64,000 nt of DNA from positions 31 to 64,030 of IMG/VR virus record IMGVR_UViG_3300043499_000058; one strand, written 5' to 3'. The notes below the pieces were generated by a model that was given only the letters and a program-made list of their open reading frames with translations, ran no database searches and was not told the DNA's origin. The stretch is from a virus. Its lineage: Duplodnaviria > Caudoviricetes. The number at the start of each line of letters is the position of its first letter. Position 1 is the first letter of the stretch. The position numbers and the translations under genes were made by a program. Shown piece by piece: positions 2,025 through 42,765 of the stretch.

Positions 2025-2436
2025 TACGCTTTTTCACCCCTCTCTTGGCAGTTGGCCGATCCCTGAACCGGGCCGAGAGAGTCGCCGCACCGCTGTCCAC
2101 GTCGATGTCAGTCACCCAAAGCTTCACCGGCTCGATGGCCCCGCTGTCCAGCTTGGGCGCGAGCAGCGAGGCCAGACCTACGCGTTGCCCCTCCTCCTCG
2201 TCTAGCCGGTTCGAGATGTAGCCAAAGTGAGCGCCGCGAAGTTTTGTCAGTTTCATGGTGCCCGCGATCACGACTTTGATCGCGTCCGAGTCGAACCGAT
2301 TGTCAGGCTCGCGCTCAAGCGTCACCGGGAACGGAACCCACCCCGGCATCATTGCGATCACGTCACGCTTCCAGCGGAAATTCAGTCCGACGACTGATAG
2401 CTCGACCGACCACGTGCGTCCGGGCTTCTTGGCCAT
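2014..2436 (-). CDS. HIRAN domain protein
   Basis: VVGLNFR...LEREPDNRFDSDAIKV...GYI...LAPKLD. Confidence 0.85.
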   Translation of the reverse strand: MAKKPGRTWSVELSVVGLNFRWKRDVIAMMPGWVPFPVTLEREPDNRFDSDAIKVVIAGTMKLTKLRGAHFGYISNRLDEEEGQRVGLASLLAPKLDSGAIEPVKLWVTDIDVDSGAATLSARFRDRPTAKRGVKKRSAS

Positions 2437-2438
2437 TG

Positions 2439-2771
2439 TCAGACCACTACCTGCGTCTCGTCACCGGGATCACAATTTGTCAGGTATGGCAGCATCTTCC
2501 GCGCGTTCTCCGCTTCCCACCTACCAGCATGACCATCCCAGGTAGCAAGCTCGCCGCATCGACACAGCCCTTCTGTTTCGTCCAGCGCGGCTTCGGTGAT
2601 GTCAGCGGACAGGCCAATTGTCCCATCCGCCCATGAGACAGGATTTCCCGCGTTTGTCACGTAGATCCCGATACCGTCTGAGTCTAGTTCTTCTATCACT
2701 CGAACGATAACGCCGTCAGCATGATCGGGGTTTGCGCTGCAAACGAAACGCCCTGCAATGTCTGTGTCCAT
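2439..2771 (-). CDS. hypothetical protein
   Basis: ORF with GGAGG SD, packed in the operon. Confidence 0.65.
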   Translation of the reverse strand: MDTDIAGRFVCSANPDHADGVIVRVIEELDSDGIGIYVTNAGNPVSWADGTIGLSADITEAALDETEGLCRCGELATWDGHAGRWEAENARKMLPYLTNCDPGDETQVVV

Positions 2772-2831
2772 GTGAACCTCCCTTGCTCGGAAACTGACCT
2801 AGGGTCAATTTAGCAGCTTTGTCAGTTTGTG

Positions 2832-3002
2832 TCAAACCGGCTTGCGCTTGGGCTTCGGCGGGCCGGGAACGTAGGGCTTGTCCGAGGGGCGCGCGTTCTC
2901 GACGCACTCCTCGATCTCCTCCTCAGTCATACCGATCTCGAATGCGTTTTCAAGCGCCGAAAGCAACTTGCTATATGCCTCGGCCCATTTGTCATCTTCC
3001 AT
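2832..3002 (-). CDS. small hypothetical protein (MEDDKW...)
   Basis: ATG after GGAGGG, coupled to the upstream stop. Confidence 0.6.
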   Translation of the reverse strand: MEDDKWAEAYSKLLSALENAFEIGMTEEEIEECVENARPSDKPYVPGPPKPKRKPV

Positions 3003-3003
3003 G

Positions 3004-3135
3004 TCATCCCTCCTGTTCCTCATCAAGACACTCGAAGCAAGACGGCATCTCTGAGTCGCCATTGCGCTCATTGTCAGCTATCTCCTCCTCGGACAATTCG
3101 TCACCGCAGTAGCAGCACACTTCCATCTCATCCAT
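3004..3135 (-). CDS. small Zn-finger-like protein (43 aa, CCYC...CFEC)
   Basis: hand translation; two CxxC pairs; fills the gap exactly. Confidence 0.6.
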   Translation of the reverse strand: MDEMEVCCYCGDELSEEEIADNERNGDSEMPSCFECLDEEQEG

Positions 3136-12531: not shown

Positions 12532-12924
12532 TCATTTGTCACGTCGAAGCCTCTCGATCTCGGCGCGCATGAGGCCCATTTGCTTGACAATCTCCTCATG
12601 ATCTTGTAGTCGCATGACAAAGAGATGTGTCGGCCGACCACCCTCGAAGTCGATCTGCATGGCAGGTAGTTGGCCCGGTGGTGTACCGAATGCGTCCTTT
12701 GTCAGCTTCTCGAACTCGACTTTGGAGAGCGTGTAGCTCGCGCTCTTAGTTGTCCGAGCCTCGACCAAGAACCCGTTGAGGGTGACATCCCGCTTACTCC
12801 ACCACAGCCGACCCGAGTTGACCTGGCGGCGTCCACCCGAACGGCGGGCCAGCCCGGACTCCTGCCGGTCGCTGCGCTGGTTCTCTCGGGCCTCCTCCCA
12901 CGGAGTCGGCGGAACTTCAGCCAT
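12532..12924 (-). CDS. Hjc-like Holliday junction resolvase
   Basis: RRQVNSG....K.DV....LVEARTT...SYTL. Confidence 0.7.
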   Translation of the reverse strand: MAEVPPTPWEEARENQRSDRQESGLARRSGGRRQVNSGRLWWSKRDVTLNGFLVEARTTKSASYTLSKVEFEKLTKDAFGTPPGQLPAMQIDFEGGRPTHLFVMRLQDHEEIVKQMGLMRAEIERLRRDK

Positions 12925-13279
12925 TGTCATCTGGCCTCCGCGTAGCAATTTCAGTTTCAACCTCGGCAAGCTTGTTGCGATGGTATTGAGCAAGCCAACG
13001 AAGATCGTCAAGAGACGACTTTTGAATCGTGCAAGAGGGATGCTGAAGGAACTCAGGCATTGTCAGCATACTTCGGTGGTTGTCCCTAAGCGCCTGAGCC
13101 GGTGTGATCGCCTTACCCACGTGACGCCTTCTCTCGATCAACCATGTGCCGCCAGTCCTGACAAAGTTCTTGCAGCGACTCGACCCCTGGCTGCATGAAC
13201 GTCGGGATGTCAGAGCGTTCAGCCACAATCGCAGCGCCCGCAATGAATGGGTACCACTTCTTGTCGAACTCCTCCAACG

Positions 13280-13498
13280 TCATGTTGTCACCCTGCGCTT
13301 GATCTTCTTGCGCTTCTGCCACTTGATCGCCGTGGCCCCGCTGATCAGCTTCGGCGCGCAACACTCGCCCACGTCAGCGTGGGCCGTGTAGTCAGCGTGC
13401 GTCTTGCGTGTGTTTTCACCGACCGGCGCAAGAAAAAGCTTGGCAACTACTCGCTCGCATGGTTTCTGACAAACATCGCAGGTACTACTCGTCGCCAT
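13280..13498 (-). CDS. small Cys-rich protein
   Basis: CDVC...ECC; start overlaps the displaced recA tail. Confidence 0.6.
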   Translation of the reverse strand: MATSSTCDVCQKPCERVVAKLFLAPVGENTRKTHADYTAHADVGECCAPKLISGATAIKWQKRKKIKRRVTT

Positions 13499-13556
13499 CG
13501 TCCTCGCCCTCCTCGTCGGCTTCCGGCGCGGAGATCGCCTTCGAGTTTTCAGTGAT
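13485..13556 (-). pseudogene. displaced original 3' end of recA
   Basis: translates ITENSKAISAPEADEEGEDDGDE*, aligning with the current RecA tail IQQNSLSISNPESEDDNESD*. Confidence 0.75.
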
Positions 13557-13948
13557 CAAGCCCATGCTGCCTTTCGTGCCAGGGCTTTCTCATTGAAAGG
13601 TTCAACCAACAGGTTGTCAGCGATTTGTTTTTCGATCTCGACAAATCGCTTGCACTTTGTCTGCGAAACAAAATACGGTCGAATTAGCGCGAACGCGGCG
13701 CGAGCTTGGTTGCCACTGACAACCCACTCCCACCTGTCCCGATGACGAATGTTCTTCGACTTCTTCATCGAAATCGAGCCGCCAAACATTTCACGCAATC
13801 GCTGAACAGGCTCAGGCTCACATTGGTTCAACGACAACCGAAGATGCAACGACTGAAATCCATCGCCTCGCACTCGCCCATAGAGAATGCTGACGCACCC
13901 CTCGCCTTCAAAAAAGCCCGCAGCCCAAGCAGCGTCAGTCGCTTTCAT
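13556..13948 (-). mobile_element. free-standing LAGLIDADG homing endonuclease
   Basis: AWAAGFFEGEGCV...FGGSI...WEWVVSG. Confidence 0.9.
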
Positions 13949-15020
13949 TGTCATCCTCACTTTCAGGATTCGATATTGACAAAGAATTCTGTTGGATCGC
14001 CCACACAAGCTCCTCGCGCATCTCGTCGTTGTCACGGAGATGCTTGCGGAACACAGACTCGGTGCCCTTCCACTCCTGGCCGTCCGAGTCCTCGTACGTG
14101 AACGTGTTACCTGACCTGACAATGAGCTTGTCCTCTAGGCCAAGGTGGATGATCTCGTACTCGGCGTCGATCAAGCTGCGCTCGTAGTCGTAGAGGAACA
14201 TCGACTCAAGCTCGGGCCTGGCCGTCTTTTGTTTTTCAGCCCGCACCGCGACCCAATGGCCAACCGGCACATCGACCGTCTGCACCTTGGCTCGCTTGAC
14301 TCGCTTACGTCCCTTTTTCATGCGGTCGAGCTTCTTGAATTCGATCCGCACCGACGCGTAATGCTTGAGCGCCCGACCCCCCGGCGTCGTCGTGCCACCA
14401 TAACCCGACACTTTGTCAATCAGTTGGTTCGTCCAGAGGATCAGGGTGTGGTCATTCTGCGCTGTGATACGTCGCAGCGCGCGAGACATCATCCGTGCCC
14501 GACCAGCGGTACGGTCGTCTCCCTCCTCCACATCCTTTTTCAGTTCCTCTTGTGGAAGCAGAGAGGCCACCGAGTCCACCATGACAACATCGGCGGGGTG
14601 GATGTCCTCCTCGGCATCTGCGATGACAAGAAGCTGCATGATCTTGATGAACTCCTCAGCCGTCTTGGGCCGATGGATCAGAAGCTCACCCAGGTTGCCC
14701 CCTAGATGCTCGAAGTACCGTTCATCGAACGATCCCTCAGAGTCCAAGAGCGCCACCGTTTCTCCACGCTGCTGCGCCCCCACCATTGTCATGCAGGCCA
14801 CGGTAGTCTTGCCGCCGTGGTAGTCACCGAACAGTTCGACGTGTCGGCCCCGAGGGAAACCACCCGCTGTGATCCGGTCGATGACAAGCGAACCGCTCGG
14901 TACGCGCTCGACCTTCCAACGCGGATGGGAAGCCAGTGACAAAACCTGGCTTCCCATCTGTCCGTTGACTCGATCCATGAGCGCCACCGTCCGAGAGCTA
15001 TTACGGCGAGCTTTTTTCAT
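13935..15020 (-). CDS. recA: RecA recombinase
   Basis: GGFPRGRHVELFG..GGKTT, VDSVASL, TPGGRALKHYASVRI. Confidence 0.95.
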   Translation of the reverse strand: MKKARRNSSRTVALMDRVNGQMGSQVLSLASHPRWKVERVPSGSLVIDRITAGGFPRGRHVELFGDYHGGKTTVACMTMVGAQQRGETVALLDSEGSFDERYFEHLGGNLGELLIHRPKTAEEFIKIMQLLVIADAEEDIHPADVVMVDSVASLLPQEELKKDVEEGDDRTAGRARMMSRALRRITAQNDHTLILWTNQLIDKVSGYGGTTTPGGRALKHYASVRIEFKKLDRMKKGRKRVKRAKVQTVDVPVGHWVAVRAEKQKTARPELESMFLYDYERSLIDAEYEIIHLGLEDKLIVRSGNTFTYEDSDGQEWKGTESVFRKHLRDNDEMREELVWAIQQNSLSISNPESEDDNESD

Positions 15021-15313
15021 GCTGACCTATTGACCCTCCTAGCGAGCTTCGCCCGCTTGTTGGACGCGCGCCGTTCGACCTTGACGTGCGCCATCGGACG
15101 CTTGGTAATTCCCCGTTTGTCAGGGATCGATCTGAGGGGCATCCGGCTTCGTGCCATCTGCCTCGCTGCCTGCGCTTTCAGGATGCGGAGAGCGTTCGCC
15201 GCGTTCCGATCCTCGTCCTGCTTCTGACGCCGTTTGAGCGCATCGAAGGTGAACCTCTGTGTGAGGTTGCGTAGGCCACTGAGCGGCCCCCTGCGGCCCT
15301 GCTCGCCCTTCAC
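15017..15313 (-). CDS. small Arg-rich protein
   Basis: coupled ORF. Confidence 0.55.
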   Translation of the reverse strand: MKGEQGRRGPLSGLRNLTQRFTFDALKRRQKQDEDRNAANALRILKAQAARQMARSRMPLRSIPDKRGITKRPMAHVKVERRASNKRAKLARRVNRSA

Positions 15314-15762
15314 AGAGGATCTACCTCATCCTCGTCAGGGACAAGCTCAGGATCGACGGCAGCGCGCTCCGCGACACCCTCCGCGTCCGGCCCATCCACG
15401 ACTCGCTCACCTGGCGCTGCTGCCTCGACCGGCAGACCGGCATCCTTGCGCTCCTCCACACTCGACTGCGGCATGACAAGCCCCTCGGCGTAGGTCGCGT
15501 CATCGATCCCGTACTGCGTCGGGTTGAGGTTGATCTGTACCGCCTGCGGATTGTCACTCGGCCCCGCATAGATGACGGTCGAACTCGCGCTCAACGTGAC
15601 CTTGGCAATTGCCATGCCGACGATCACGTTTTCAGGCATCTCGTAGTCAGGATCGAGGTTGACGATCCGCGCTCCGCTTTCGAGGACGATTGCCCACCCG
15701 TCGCCCTCTGGCTCGACGGCGGTGATCTCCTGACCGTGGTAGAACGTGAGGTTAGGTTCCAT
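15310..15762 (-). CDS. acidic hypothetical protein
   Basis: AAGGAGG SD before ATG 15762. Confidence 0.7.
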   Translation of the reverse strand: MEPNLTFYHGQEITAVEPEGDGWAIVLESGARIVNLDPDYEMPENVIVGMAIAKVTLSASSTVIYAGPSDNPQAVQINLNPTQYGIDDATYAEGLVMPQSSVEERKDAGLPVEAAAPGERVVDGPDAEGVAERAAVDPELVPDEDEVDPL

Positions 15763-31986: not shown

Positions 31987-33401
31987 GTGACGGTGATCGT
32001 TCCCGGCACGCGCTTCTGCGTGGCCGTCGCTGTCTGATCAGTTGCCGGTGTGCTGACAACCACAGTAGCCACCCCTGGCAGACCGAAGATCGCATCGATG
32101 AGTCCTGCGATGTAGACGGTGCCGCCGACTGGAACGGCATTGATGTAGTCCGTGATCGCCTCCTGCACCGACGCGGTGACATCCGCGAGCAGATACCCAC
32201 CTGCCAGCGTGATCGCCACAGTGACATTCGTAGAAACCTGAGTGAACGTGGCCACGTGAATCGTGATGTTGGCAATGTCGCGCATTGTCAGGTCTGCGAG
32301 AACTGCCGCGATGACCCCGGCACTCGGGATCGATCCATTCGGCCCTGCGATCCTGACTGTGACATGCCCCGGTGTGGCGACGCCCACGTTGTCATTGTTG
32401 AACGCCGTGGCTGAGTCAACACCCTCGATGGCCTCGGCCCACGATTCGAGATCGGCCATCGAGCCGGTGCGCGGGTTGCGGATGAAATCGAGCAAGCGGG
32501 CACGGAATGTTTCCATGTCCTCCTCGTCCGTAGCCCCGGCGAACGTGGTGGTGTTTGTCACGTCCGTTACGCCGTCCGGCACCTGCACAAGCTCGCGGAT
32601 CGCGCCGATGACCGCGTTGTATGCCACCCCCGAGTCCTCGGACTCGCCTGCGACTGAAATCCGCTCGGCCGTTGACTCTACCACCGGCGCACCTACCAGC
32701 GCCGTATCGTTGTCAGTCCCGGTAGTGGTCACGTTGTTGGCGAACGTCGCGTTGAGCGCGTCCACGTTCTGCCACGCCCCACCGTTCAGACGCCGGTAGA
32801 GCTTCCTGGCAGTCGTGCCAGGGCCACCGGCAGCGACCACGGTGATTGTCGCCTGCTTGTTGATCGCCAACACCAGGGCATTCGACGCCGGGCCAATTTC
32901 AGTCTCCCCTGCTGCTGTGACAAACGAGTAAGCCCACTCGTACGTTCCCGCTGGCAGGGCACCTGCGCCACCGTCCGTTGCGACGGGCGCTGCGGGATCG
33001 CCAGGATTCGGGATCACCGAGTCGGCCGTTGTCAGGTAATAGAGAACATCACCCTCGCCTACGTCCACACCGACCATCGCGCCGGTCAAGATCGACGTGC
33101 CGCCAGCGCCAGTGAACATGAGCGTGCCAATCGCCTTGGTTCCCTGCTTTACTGACAAGCCGTACTGTTCGCCGTGACGACGAAGCTCGACAAGGTTCGC
33201 GGAAGTGACAAAGATGTTGTCCCGCTGAATTTGGTTGGCCAGGTACACGCCCTCCAATACCTCTGCCATGACTTCAGCGAAGATGCGAACGTTGCCGTCC
33301 TCCTCCACGTGGATGTCAGAGATGCGAGACTGGTATCGCTGAATGATGTCAGCGACGATCTGATCGCGGTTCCTGTAGATCACGTCAGCCTCTATCGGCA
33401 T
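31983..33401 (-). CDS. baseplate J-like protein
   Basis: G.AYN...GATDEED...RAR...GS..D...WA..IEGV. Confidence 0.9.
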   Translation of the reverse strand: MPIEADVIYRNRDQIVADIIQRYQSRISDIHVEEDGNVRIFAEVMAEVLEGVYLANQIQRDNIFVTSANLVELRRHGEQYGLSVKQGTKAIGTLMFTGAGGTSILTGAMVGVDVGEGDVLYYLTTADSVIPNPGDPAAPVATDGGAGALPAGTYEWAYSFVTAAGETEIGPASNALVLAINKQATITVVAAGGPGTTARKLYRRLNGGAWQNVDALNATFANNVTTTGTDNDTALVGAPVVESTAERISVAGESEDSGVAYNAVIGAIRELVQVPDGVTDVTNTTTFAGATDEEDMETFRARLLDFIRNPRTGSMADLESWAEAIEGVDSATAFNNDNVGVATPGHVTVRIAGPNGSIPSAGVIAAVLADLTMRDIANITIHVATFTQVSTNVTVAITLAGGYLLADVTASVQEAITDYINAVPVGGTVYIAGLIDAIFGLPGVATVVVSTPATDQTATATQKRVPGTITVT

Positions 33402-33796
33402 GACAATTCCTCTCCGAAGTAGTAGTCATGCGTCTCGATCAGAAGCGCGGCCCGTTCTCGCTTGACAATCAGCCAAGGAAACAGTTGATCAAGTACGTTA
33501 CGCGCATTGGCACCGTAGCATTGCCAACGCCAAGATTCCTTCTGCTCAGGTCGATTCGGCCGAAGCAGAACGACGCTGCCACATCCAGTGACAACTTGAA
33601 TGCGACGAATGATCTCCTCGTTTGTCATGGCAACTGCCATCGTGATCGCGCATCGCTGGTTTCGACGCTTGGTATCGAAGCACGTACCCTCGCCATCGAA
33701 TAGGCCCGCAAGCCAAGCGACCTCTATTTCAGACATCTCTCGGGCAGGAACACCCCGCGTCTTGCCGCCATTTCTAGTCCATACTTCGATTGGCAT
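33392..33796 (-). mobile_element. free-standing LAGLIDADG homing endonuclease
   Basis: AWLAGLFDGEGT...PWLIVKRERA. Confidence 0.9.
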
Positions 33797-37774: not shown

Positions 37775-38185
37775 CTACTCACCTACTTTCATTTCAGCAA
37801 GCAACGCCCAATCGTAATTGTCAGTGGCAAACTGATCTTTGGGCTGAATTCGTCCTCGCACTCGTCGTTCCTGAAAAGCAATTGCGATGACTGCCTGATC
37901 GTGTTTTTCAACCAAATACGGAAGCAGTTGCCGCAGAACCTCAGCGGCGTCTTGTGTACAAACCGTCCACCACCATACATCCTGACTAGCTGGCCTCCTG
38001 ACGGTGCCACCGAACATCGACTGCAACTTGTCAAGTGCAATACGACGTTTTTGACTGACAACCAACTTGAGCACAAATCGAACACCGCTAGAGGTTGTCT
38101 TACACTTCGCCTTTGACAAAGAAACACATCCTTCGCCATCGATAAACCCCGCAGCCCAAGCAAGATCAGTTGGAATGTGAGTCAT
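37775..38185 (-). mobile_element. free-standing LAGLIDADG homing endonuclease
   Basis: AWAAGFIDGEGCV...PYLVEKHDQA. Confidence 0.92.
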
Positions 38186-38187
38186 TG

Positions 38188-40383
38188 TCACCTACCCCCT
38201 TGCGGCCCACGCCGCTGCGCTTTCTTTTGGCCTCGGAATCGCGGAGCGCCCTGCACGTTGTCAAGCTTGACCGGCAAGTAGGGTTCCTTGTTTGCGATGC
38301 GAAGCAGTTTGTCAAGATCCGCAGTCGGGACAAGGTGGACGGTGACGCCTGCCTCGCCCTGGATGTGAACACCGCCACCCCGACTCGGCCGTGCTGACAA
38401 TCCACGATCCAACCGCTTGAGCCGAGCTTCAGCCGTCGCCGCTGAGATGTACCGATGCGAAAACGCTGACAATACCTCTTGCTGATCGTCGGTCGGGCCT
38501 TCGTGGAATGACAATCCAGTAGCCCGAGTCGAACGACCGAGCTTTGCAAGGAACGGGAAGCCCTTTGGCACCCGGCGTGCATCGCCTGAAGCGATTGCTC
38601 GCCTTGTGAATTCGTCCTGAAGCTGCTGCGCCGCGATGGGGGTTCCCAAAAGCGCCGCCGTTGCCCCTGTCGCTTTCAGTCCAGTCGCCAGGTTCTTTCT
38701 GCTCCACAGCGGCACCACCGGAGGCTTAGTCGTGCCGCCGCCAGTACCCGTCCCTGTCGGTGCGCCAGGCATGAACCATGAGAGCGGATCGATGACAACC
38801 CAATACGGGTTCGAGCGCGAGCCTGAACGTGTTTGTCCTTCGCCTGTAGCTGAAAACGCCCCGAGTCCAGAACCGACGACTGACGCCGCCGCAAGCTGCG
38901 GTGCCCGCGTTGCGAGGCCAGGGAAACGGCCCATGATGTTTTTCAGGCCAGGGATGCGCGCTGCGCCCTTCCCGAGCATTCCGACGATCCCCGCGCCGAA
39001 GATCAGCCTAGAGGCCAACGCTGCCCCGCCTACGGCCCCCACAGCCCCCGTAACGGCCGACGGGTTCTGATCGGTAATCCAATCACCAATCCGGTTGATC
39101 TGCATGGCGATGGGCCGCAGCGCCGGGTCAGCACCGCGAGCAACTGTCAGGCCCACGTTGCGCTGAATCTGCCCAAGCTGCTGATACGCCCTTTGTCTGT
39201 TTCGCTGCTCGGCCATCTGCTTGCCAAGCTCCGCGTCTTTGGCTTTGTTGATCCCGTCAACGAATTTTTCAAGCGCCGGGATTCCACCCTGCGCCATGAG
39301 GTTGAGGAACTGCCTGAAAGATTCCTGACGGCCAAAGAGCTTCGAGGCCAATGTCAGGTTGATACCTGACGCACCCGAGCCAGCGATAGCCGCGTCGTCG
39401 TCCAAGCCCTCGACACCGAGCGCCATCGGGTTCGAGAAGCGAGCGCCATTCGGGGCTACCGCCTGCATCATCTTCTGAAGCACCTGAAAACCGCCAAGCG
39501 CGCGCAGTTGCGACGGGTCAGTTGGCAGACCGGCCTGCCGAAACGCTTTCATCTGATCGTCGGTCTGCGGCCGGATGATCTCGGACGCGAGCAACTGCGT
39601 CACGCCTCGACCGATGACAGCCGGTGAACCACCGGAGCGAGCCGCGAGTCCGTACACGGCCCAAATCTGCTCGGGGGTCATGCGCGATGCGGTCTGCGCG
39701 GCACCGAGTCGGCCAATGTCACGCGCGATGTCCTCACCGCGAACAGTAGGCGTCTCTTGCAGAACGCGAGCGATGATGTCACGCATACGTGCGCCCTGAG
39801 CGCCAATGTCACGCGGCGTACCGGGAGGGGTGGCACCGATGATCATTCCGGCGACACCACCGCCGAGCGCCTGCGGGTCTGCACCTTCCGCGAACATCGA
39901 GATTTCAGCCATCGTCTTTGCGTATTTGTCAAGCATGTTGAGTCCACGCTGACCACGTACGTCGTCACCGAACGATGAGTAGAAGCGGATCATGTGCTGC
40001 TGGATGTCATCGACGGCGATCCCGAATCGGTTGCTCAGGTCGATGGCGATGTCGCCAACCTGATTCAAGCCGCGCCCGAGACTTGTCAGTTTGCCGTTGG
40101 AATCGATCTCTCCCGCAAGCGCATCAATTTCACCCAGGCGGTCAAGGAACTGGCCGAGGCCACTGACAGCGGACGCTGTTGCGTACACCGTGGCCCCGGC
40201 CAGCGCGTATCTGATCGTCGTACCGACCGCGCGCATCTGCTGACCCCACAGCCCGAGGTTGCGCGTGTGCGAACGAACCTGCCGGTCGAAACCGACAAGC
40301 CCGCCGATGTTCCGCTCGATGTCAGCCCGAAGCTGCGCACCGTGCGAAGTCCAGATGAGATTAAGTCTGTAGTCAGACGACAC
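38188..40383 (-). CDS. tape measure protein
   Basis: 731 aa, Ala/Gly-rich helical, after the tail chaperones. Confidence 0.85.
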   Translation of the reverse strand: MSSDYRLNLIWTSHGAQLRADIERNIGGLVGFDRQVRSHTRNLGLWGQQMRAVGTTIRYALAGATVYATASAVSGLGQFLDRLGEIDALAGEIDSNGKLTSLGRGLNQVGDIAIDLSNRFGIAVDDIQQHMIRFYSSFGDDVRGQRGLNMLDKYAKTMAEISMFAEGADPQALGGGVAGMIIGATPPGTPRDIGAQGARMRDIIARVLQETPTVRGEDIARDIGRLGAAQTASRMTPEQIWAVYGLAARSGGSPAVIGRGVTQLLASEIIRPQTDDQMKAFRQAGLPTDPSQLRALGGFQVLQKMMQAVAPNGARFSNPMALGVEGLDDDAAIAGSGASGINLTLASKLFGRQESFRQFLNLMAQGGIPALEKFVDGINKAKDAELGKQMAEQRNRQRAYQQLGQIQRNVGLTVARGADPALRPIAMQINRIGDWITDQNPSAVTGAVGAVGGAALASRLIFGAGIVGMLGKGAARIPGLKNIMGRFPGLATRAPQLAAASVVGSGLGAFSATGEGQTRSGSRSNPYWVVIDPLSWFMPGAPTGTGTGGGTTKPPVVPLWSRKNLATGLKATGATAALLGTPIAAQQLQDEFTRRAIASGDARRVPKGFPFLAKLGRSTRATGLSFHEGPTDDQQEVLSAFSHRYISAATAEARLKRLDRGLSARPSRGGGVHIQGEAGVTVHLVPTADLDKLLRIANKEPYLPVKLDNVQGAPRFRGQKKAQRRGPQGGR

Positions 40384-40744
40384 TGAAAACCCTCGCTTCG
40401 ATAGCTTCGATTACCTCAAGCGCGCCTGCTCGTTTCAGGATCAGATGTGGAGTAATTCGTTTGAGGATTTTCAGGATGTCCTCACGTCGATTGACTGCAA
40501 GCACACGCATTTCCCGAGTGCCATATGCCTTCCGGCTTTGCTTGGCGATACGGCTCTGACAAACGATTCCGTTGACGTTCAGGAAGGTTTCCAACGCGTG
40601 AATTACGTCAGACGTTTTGTCAACCTGGCCCCAGGTGATCTGGAAATGGATTCGTTCCTTTTTGTCAACCCACCACAGGATCGAGCCATCACCGTCAGTG
40701 AAGCCCGCCACGTAAGCCCATGTCATCGGTTTTGCGCTACTCAC
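40373..40744 (-). mobile_element. free-standing LAGLIDADG homing endonuclease
   Basis: WAYVAGFTDGDGSI...PHLILKR. Confidence 0.92.
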
Positions 40745-42336: not shown

Positions 42337-42765
42337 CTAGCTCACCCCCTCGAACGAACGGGTAACGCGACCGTCCGTAATGGTTCCTTCCATGATTTCT
42401 GCCATCCTTTCTTCGATGTCCTCGACGGCCTTGATCGCCTCGTCGTTCTTGACAATCAGATACGGCAACATCGCATAGAGCATCTTGTAGACGTTTGCCA
42501 CACCATTGACAGCCAGAGCGAACGAGCCGCTATGACCCTTTTTCAAGCGATCAGGCCGATGATGGATTTCGACAGTCGCCTTGATTCCTTCGATTTCAAG
42601 GAAAGTGACAATGGCGTCAAGAACTTCTCGACGGTTCTGATAGATTTTCAGCCTACTTTGCCGCCGAATCGTTCCACGCGTCTGCCGACCAACACGGCAA
42701 TCCACACAGCCTTCGCCATCGAAGAATCCAGCGACGTAAGCCCATGAGATCGGCAACCATGCCAT
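42337..42765 (-). mobile_element. free-standing LAGLIDADG homing endonuclease
   Basis: WAYVAGFFDGEGCV...PYLIVKNDEA. Confidence 0.92.

Follow-up and report, generated by a model that had tools for sequence, protein, structure and literature searches.

The closest described counterparts of the arrangement reported here are the 'gene hybrids' of mobile open reading frames (ORFs) in fungal mitochondria, for which the sections concerned of one report describe atp6, atp9, cox2 and nad3 of a Glomus sp. and cite further hybrids in Allomyces macrogynus atp6, Rhizopus atp9 and Mortierella cox2 (PMC3630166). Among phages, the seg and mob genes of T4 come nearest: in the passages that treat them, they are free-standing, move by 'intronless homing', adjoin essential genes and rely on upstream transcription, and some provide replacement expression signals for the gene downstream (PMC2988022). 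The same passages describe host genes split by an endonuclease gene, namely Aeh1 nrdA by mobE and T4 gene 60/39 by mobA (PMC2988022). We analysed a 64,000-nucleotide (nt) stretch of DNA, called the window below, from an IMG/VR virus record of 64,030 nt that is estimated to be 90% complete and carries phage head, tail and replication genes; it is a phage-type virus record rather than fungal mitochondrial DNA, and a run search labels the holders of the record as soil metagenomes. Near the end of its recA gene lies a small LAGLIDADG homing endonuclease gene, and the evidence below makes it very probable that this gene arrived as a cassette copied into the end of recA together with a substitute tail, displacing the native tail downstream. 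A first-pass annotation had proposed this arrangement; its observation is confirmed and its interpretation supported.

The recA, endonuclease and old-tail features described in that annotation are all present where it placed them, and all genes in the stretch 13280..15020 lie on the minus strand (Table 1). The recA ORF (13935..15020) encodes 361 amino acids (aa) with the C-terminus WAIQQNSLSISNPESEDDNESD, and its substitute tail, 19 AT-rich codons long, directly follows the conserved WAI motif. The last five codons of this tail and its stop also encode the N-terminus of the endonuclease, whose ATG at 13948 places its start in a 14-nt overlap with the recA stop. This ATG is a likelier start than the one at 13954 because GAGGA stands 5 nt upstream, and the resulting 130-aa form is the entry P0123 of the protein collection. 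The endonuclease ORF is not in the recA frame, takes up 393 of the 441 inserted nt and ends in KAAWA with its stop at 13556. Downstream, the fragment 13485..13562 reads GLITENSKAISAPEADEEGEDDGDE up to a stop, and the part right after the endonuclease stop (13485..13556), in another frame, reads ITENSKAISAPEADEEGEDDGDE. The stop of this displaced tail still overlaps, as had been claimed, the start (ATG 13498) of the next gene, which encodes 72 aa; the overlap is again 14 nt, and the tail carries the ribosome-binding region of that gene along with its first 14 nt.

The junction motifs are TGGGCGATC at 14003..13995 and TGGGCTTGATC at the 3' junction, and the TGA within the latter is the endonuclease stop, which agrees with the proposal that the difference between the two junctions creates that stop. 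We do not claim the TGGGC shared by both junctions as beyond chance, because a W is aligned at that place in four of the seven endonuclease sequences of the alignment. When both flanks are joined by coordinates, the result is an open RecA of 364 aa without an internal stop, in which WAI runs straight into the displaced tail.

Judged by their sequences, both segments are RecA tails, and the displaced one is the more typical. The recA product matches Pfam RecA (E 8.7e-49, residues 16-250), its ATPase core retains every residue that is invariant in 36 relatives, and E337, L338 and I342 are nearly invariant among the same 36. Of 8000 candidates scored in a protein search, 5937 were RecA relatives at E<=1e-20; the closest are 69-75% identical, and their C-termini run through EL.WAI and about ten semi-conserved residues to an acidic end. 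We built a tail profile from the 12 residues after 'WA' in 42 of the 46 closest RecA matches (the other four lacked the anchor motif or had tails that were too short) and scored it on all 93,131 six-frame 12-mers of the window. The displaced tail ranked first with 32.1 bits and the attached tail second with 19.0, the best background 12-mer reaching 16.8, and it is on these two ranks that we call both segments RecA tails. When the final 40 residues of RecA were aligned locally to the DNA that follows the endonuclease, the score was 50, a value that none of 300 shuffles reached. The profile replaced a broader hidden Markov model, built on the C-terminal 70 residues of the full set of 119 listed relatives. 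That model was not discriminating: it placed the displaced fragment only 4th among 2053 fragments, with an E value of 4.3 that on its own carries no significance. Escherichia coli RecA has an autoregulatory acidic C-terminus, with which the acidic character of both tails is in keeping. A degenerate pattern for the eight residues WAITENSK matched no IMG/VR stretch, an IMG/VR scan with a single protein returned no relatives, and the 904 GenBank phage records that match RecA are all below 60% identity (best 30-35%), none being useful for tails.

Base composition separates the two tails in the way that had been proposed, with the attached tail in AT-rich codons and the old tail continuing after the endonuclease in GC-rich ones. 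The G+C share of third codon positions (GC3) is 0.72 in the recA body (341 codons), 0.38 in the attached tail (21 codons), 0.56 in the endonuclease gene (131 codons) and 0.83 in the displaced tail (23 codons). No 21-codon window within the recA body falls below 0.48, and the last windows before the junction stand at 0.7-0.9; given so sharp a break, the foreign DNA begins right after the WAI codons. Across 12 aligned codons, the tails agree at 7 residues, yet by manual count at only 19 of 36 nt.

The layout without the endonuclease is preserved in related phages. We compared seven distinct related loci (L005, which L006 matches at the same positions, L007-L011 and L085, the last from a metagenome scan that yielded at least this one usable relative), in which RecA is 43-62% identical. 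In all seven a homologue of the 72-aa gene comes straight after recA, without an endonuclease gene between them; with start codons set by the conserved N-terminus, the recA stop overlaps the start of that homologue by 4-23 nt in six and abuts it in the seventh. This is the ancestral layout, and the displaced tail still has the same relation to the 72-aa gene here. The first-pass annotation was to be judged by recA tails in related phages and would have failed on tails unrelated to the downstream fragment; in these endonuclease-free relatives the tails are of the same type as that fragment.

An empty allele of the same site was found among the Logan contigs of four soil runs, aligned on 12900..15100. 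Two runs of the probable source sample cover the stretch unchanged. In run X3, from another study and another year (2019), one 151-nt contig with a depth of 2.6 joins 13553 to 13995 and skips the 441 nt, and four letters at the joint (GATC) fit either side. Its 114-nt recA piece has one other letter, and its 35-nt side has one change, C>G at 13542, which is synonymous in the tail frame by a manual reading of the codons; the flanks of the filled and empty alleles are about 99% alike. Since a unitig cannot be mis-joined on four shared letters, the junction must stand in the reads, and it lies at exactly the place where the first-pass annotation had reconstructed the empty site. The site therefore shows a presence/absence polymorphism at one exact position between near-identical flanks, seen in a single contig. 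Runs X1, X2 and X4 showed no such joint, and the pieces from X4, like most of those from X3, are short, less than 90% alike and therefore uninformative.

Table 1. Coordinates of the features discussed, in positions of the window
Feature	Positions	Strand	Basis or remark
recA body, codons 1-342, ending in the conserved ELVWAI motif	13995..15020	minus	Pfam RecA, relatives, GC3
Inserted cassette, 441 nt: substitute tail and endonuclease gene	13554..13994	minus	Joint in the X3 contig and composition break; boundaries equally 13558..13998 because of GATC at both ends
Substitute RecA tail QQNSLSISNPESEDDNESD and stop, AT-rich	13935..13994	minus	
Single-motif LAGLIDADG homing endonuclease gene, 130 aa	13556..13948	minus	Alternative ATG 13954
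Displaced native RecA tail TENSKAISAPEADEEGEDDGDE and stop, GC-rich	13485..13553	minus	
Next gene, 72 aa, cysteine-rich (CDVC...CC), conserved neighbour of recA	13280..13498	minus	
GATC at the left junction	13995..13998	minus	Same four letters at the right junction, 13554..13557
LAGLIDADG gene	33392..33796	minus	N-terminal residues in common with downstream gene: MPIE
LAGLIDADG gene	40373..40744	minus	N-terminal residues in common with downstream gene: MSS
LAGLIDADG gene	42337..42765	minus	N-terminal residues in common with downstream gene: MAWL

The inserted gene encodes a LAGLIDADG enzyme by both sequence and fold. Its product matches Pfam LAGLIDADG_1 at 27.8 bits against a cut-off of 23.1 and carries the motif AAGFFEGEG, in which, across 50 single-motif relatives, the glycines are invariant and the E of G-E-G nearly so. 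A HMMER search of 1.84 billion representatives returned 5594 relatives at E<=0.001, the closest of which are 54%, 46% and 40% identical; most are 110-170 aa long with one motif, and some are two-domain forms. A structure model based on an alignment of the 50 single-motif relatives (predicted local distance difference test, pLDDT, 95.4) has its elements in the order H-E-E-H-E-E-H, so that the predicted structure shows the alpha-beta-beta-alpha-beta-beta-alpha core fold. It matches 118 PDB chains at E<=0.001, and all those listed are LAGLIDADG enzymes (template modelling score, TM, 0.53-0.68), including I-PnoMI, I-MsoI, I-OnuI, I-CvuI, I-CeuI and I-CreI. With a fold modelled at high confidence and the family-invariant residues present, the endonuclease gene looks intact. 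A word-index search with the endonuclease returned two proteins, one of which was the window's own.

We propose that a free-standing cassette was copied into the last 5% of the recA gene of a soil phage, immediately after the WAI codons, and that the direction of change was gain rather than loss. The foreign, AT-rich, in-frame tail that came with it replaces the acidic C-terminal tail of RecA, which stays whole, and the native tail, no longer part of RecA, continues to give the 72-aa gene its ribosome-binding region and start; it would also act as the right-hand homology for copying the cassette. During a mixed infection the enzyme, presumably acting as a homodimer, would cleave an endonuclease-free recA at or near the junction of WAI and the tail, and repair from the cassette-bearing genome would then copy the cassette between the recA body and the native tail. 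A cassette-bearing allele would be immune, its site being split and the substitute tail differently encoded. Homing enzymes prefer targets that lie in conserved motifs, and the left half of the proposed cut site encodes the last conserved motif of RecA, which makes it a target of that kind. As for the first cassette, it could have arisen if a diverged donor served for homologous repair on one side only and the other end was joined at GATC, a route that would leave the recipient's own tail in place from the break onward.

The endonuclease is probably expressed by read-through from recA and by translational coupling, as its start lies inside the end of the substitute tail. We base this on scans of 13100-15400, in which no promoter-like site lies on the coding strand (one site against 0.7 expected, on the wrong strand, which is the chance level) and terminator-like sites do not exceed chance (three against 2.0 expected). 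A weak terminator-like hairpin with a run of T lies at 13916-13930 (minus strand), in the 5' part of the endonuclease gene, in a scan that overall stands at chance level; T4 mobE and segF are likewise described as having terminators in the 5' part of the endonuclease gene, in the part of the source that treats them (PMC2988022). At the other end of the gene, a TTG at 13557-13559 (minus strand), which shares letters with the endonuclease stop (TTGA), stands at the head of the reading frame of the displaced tail; the tail could, on its sequence, be translated as a putative 24-codon mini-ORF ending inside the start of the 72-aa gene. The 72-aa protein itself has a conserved CD(I/V)C ... ADVG.CC pattern with a zinc-binding look and gave no Pfam or PHROG match.

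Several points weigh against the proposal of a mobile cassette. First, the evidence for the empty allele is thin, as it rests on one short contig with a depth of 2.6 and 35 nt on one side. Second, no donor of the substitute tail was found, the best tails among the relatives sharing 7 of 12 residues with it. Third, the I-CreI target is two-fold symmetric, unlike the empty site, where symmetry near the junction reaches at best 5 of 9 arm positions, a level attained by about 5.6% of window positions and thus not above background. Fourth, none of 80 IMG/VR loci with relatives of the endonuclease holds recA or its neighbours; as the closest relative of the enzyme is, in addition, only 54% identical, its spread among recA genes is not documented. 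Finally, some of the eight closest RecA relatives (69-75% identity) may themselves carry the cassette.

The alternative that survives best, though we consider it unlikely, is that the empty allele in X3 arose by a secondary, precise loss of the cassette, which would then be old and immobile, with a resident and possibly inactive endonuclease. In its favour are the single empty-site contig, the failure to find close copies of the endonuclease elsewhere and the 4-nt GATC repeat, which could in principle mediate a deletion. However, 4 nt of homology rarely lead to a precise deletion of 441 nt, and the roughly 99% likeness of the allele flanks fits a recent event. The ORF is intact: its fold is modelled with high confidence, and no family-invariant residue is missing. 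Nor has the AT-rich tail drifted towards the composition of the genome. Much less probable is a duplication of the tail in place, with the endonuclease landing between the two copies and the upstream copy diverging later. The two tails are indeed homologous (7 of 12 residues), but such copies would have come to share only 19 of 36 nt and to differ in GC3 by a sharp break (0.38 against 0.83), for which the near-identity of the flanking recA to the empty allele leaves no time.

The window offers a further comparison, as it holds four more small LAGLIDADG genes, with Pfam scores of 22.5, 38.2, 20.4 and 29.7 bits, the third of which is below the cut-off. In three of them (Table 1), the first 3-4 residues are those of the downstream gene, encoded by different codons, and in five of five related genomes the genes flanking these three inserts are adjacent with no insert between them. 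The native start region in the relatives, including the ribosome-binding site, matches the start now used by the endonuclease; the 12-letter start of the gene in one relative (L259), for example, is that of the endonuclease gene at 42337..42765. These 5' duplications were found by eye and then compared with the relatives, and an in-window duplication test missed such cases of 3-4 codons, giving p 0.08 for one and no significance for the other two. With three LAGLIDADG genes of this kind in the window, all absent from relatives, the description of the recA locus as the mirror image of a 5'-end strategy holds. Altogether, four of the five endonuclease genes in the window lie a few codons inside the end of a gene, with a recoded copy of the displaced part. 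The fifth (37775-38191, minus strand, 38.2 bits) lies between the gene for a 731-aa tail protein and the next gene, about 80 nt before the start of the latter, and no clear duplicated terminus was found for it.

These 5'-end genes also suggest another way to read the recA locus, namely as the same strategy aimed at the 72-aa gene, with the AT-rich tail native and the GC-rich downstream copy brought by the cassette. Three other endonuclease genes of the genome do work in this way, and the endonuclease begins with MKAT where the 72-aa protein begins with MAT. We give this reading very little credence, however. The X3 contig keeps the downstream copy without the upstream one, and it is the downstream copy, not the upstream, that has the composition of the genome. 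The derivation of MKAT from the 72-aa gene was rejected, as MK.T(D/E).AWAAGF is the endonuclease family's own N-terminus.

That the insert is spliced out as a group I intron or an intein, with RecA made using the downstream tail, can hardly be right. Introns and inteins are reported from recA genes of other phages and bacteria (PMC3239194, PMC11377839), and the RecA of one relative (P0027, in L005/L006) has an in-frame insert with weak intein matches. Here, however, no Rfam family matches at E<=1 in 13200..14300, and with 393 of the 441 nt taken up by the ORF a ribozyme would not fit. The endonuclease has its own start, in a frame other than that of recA, and gave no intein domain match, and recA itself reads on into a tail typical of the family and then a stop. 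The insert in P0027 (about 2730-3500 of L005 and L006; RecA 62% identical) adds about 240 residues in frame behind roughly residue 67, close to the ATP-binding loop. It gives weak intein and LAGLIDADG_3 matches, both below their cut-offs, and is probably an intein. In another relative (L258, G004:C1:20769-22670), a homologue of a 472-aa baseplate-like protein occupies an open frame of 638 aa with about 500 nt extra between query residues 339 and 341, which could be another in-frame insert.

The 3'-end design found at recA recurs in an unrelated phage. The 80 IMG/VR loci holding endonuclease relatives were screened for terminal duplications. In the 3' test, 2 of 55 testable loci reached p<=0.01; one of these, L176, is real on inspection, and the other, L200, was rejected. 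In the 5' test, L192 and L239 reached the same level among 67 testable loci, and L192 was rejected on inspection. At L176 (about 2300-3070, in a contig region that is also represented by L245), a gene for a related endonuclease with the motif AWAAGFIDG, whose best PHROG is labelled 'HNH endonuclease', is inserted 33 nt before the end of a gene for a major head protein (phrog_1005, E 7.6e-54), which ends ITTAFSASAF. After the endonuclease come a ribosome-binding site, an ATG, two codons and then ITTAFSASAF and a stop once more, so that the native copy of the tail forms part of a mini-ORF of 13 codons, equipped with a ribosome-binding site and an ATG of its own. The last 10 codons attached to the host gene encode the same residues, with 8 of 10 codons being synonymous variants (manual count). 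The endonuclease-free locus L246 (90% aa identity) is closer to the downstream copy: its corresponding end agrees with that copy at 31 of 33 nt but with the attached one at 23 of 33, and over the 30 nt after the stop the match is 24 of 30 for the downstream copy against 7 of 30 for the attached one. The insert is absent from the seven other related loci as well.

Together with these cases, the recA locus raises the possibility, which we put forward tentatively and at slightly less than an even chance, that small free-standing LAGLIDADG endonucleases of soil phages have a general and hitherto undescribed habit, free of introns and inteins, of residing in essential coding regions: they would insert 3 to 23 codons from the end of a gene and bring a recoded copy of the codons that they displace. 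At 3' ends the cassette would give the upstream gene a new tail; at 5' ends the endonuclease would take over the ribosome-binding site and first codons of the host gene, which would receive a new start region. Recoding would keep the host protein whole while destroying the target and doing away with repeats through which the element could be deleted. Continued translation of the displaced piece, as a mini-ORF, may preserve the coupling to the next gene, and the GATC common to both junctions of the recA cassette may mark a 4-nt cleavage overhang.

The proposed history would show how a homing endonuclease can colonise an essential phage coding sequence without a splicing element, and would explain short chimeric gene ends in phage genomes. 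As both the filled and the empty allele were seen, the insertion site is known to the base, and the pair provides a directly testable target for a new and very small (130 aa) LAGLIDADG enzyme. With one 3' and three 5' versions in this window and another 3' version in an unrelated phage, the design may be common, and it may be systematically overlooked because annotation sees an ordinary gene, an endonuclease gene and a short gap.

How the locus compares with known systems can be set out in order of increasing likeness. Single-motif, homodimeric enzymes such as I-CreI, I-MsoI, I-CvuI and I-CeuI share with the present enzyme its size (130 aa), one motif with an acidic residue and, in the model, the same fold. 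They are only 12-19% identical to it in sequence, however, and are encoded by introns in organelles, and the target proposed here shows little symmetry compared with those of I-CreI-type enzymes. As a gene targeted by homing elements, recA has precedents: that of Bacillus phage 0305phi8-36 reportedly holds a group I intron with I-Bth0305I, and the RecA of Mycobacterium tuberculosis is said to contain an intein. Those elements, as far as their descriptions go, are spliced and sit in the catalytic core, whereas the recA insert described here involves no splicing and lies in the variable tail after the last conserved motif.

The T4 seg and mob genes are closer in organisation, with ORFs that overlap the upstream ORF by 11-24 base pairs, compared with 14 nt here; in the passages concerned, they are GIY-YIG and HNH endonuclease genes, located between other genes or dividing a gene so that two polypeptides result, whereas the present gene is a LAGLIDADG one (PMC2988022). 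In nrdA/mobE and gene 60/39/mobA, as here, an endonuclease gene is inserted in a coding region without an intron or intein; there, as those cases are described, the host protein is made as two chains that reassemble, while here RecA remains one chain to which the cassette gives a new end. A duplicated, recoded gene terminus is not mentioned in the relevant sections on T4 (PMC2988022) or on ICP1 phages (PMC10448857), and in a literature search that left most subscription journals outside its reach we found no phage case of such a gene end beside an endonuclease gene.

The architecture best matches that of the fungal mobile-ORF gene hybrids, and the phage case with its 5' counterparts appears to be new as far as we could find. 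In the hybrids, as described in the sections cited above, and in the recA locus alike, a gene has received, close to its 3' end, an endonuclease ORF accompanied by a foreign C-terminal segment in phase with that gene, the native C-terminus persists downstream and is closer to that of insert-free relatives (here 32.1 against 19.0 bits), and the inserted and native copies differ strongly in their DNA. The recA locus departs from these hybrids, so far as those sections go, in four respects: it lies in a phage genome instead of an organelle's; the endonuclease has an ORF of its own, which is in a different frame and has its start in an overlap with the new stop; the next gene still takes its translation start region from the displaced tail; and 5' ends in the same genome carry mirror-image versions. 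The comparison would thus link the biology of phage endonucleases to the mobile-ORF hybrids of fungal mitochondria.

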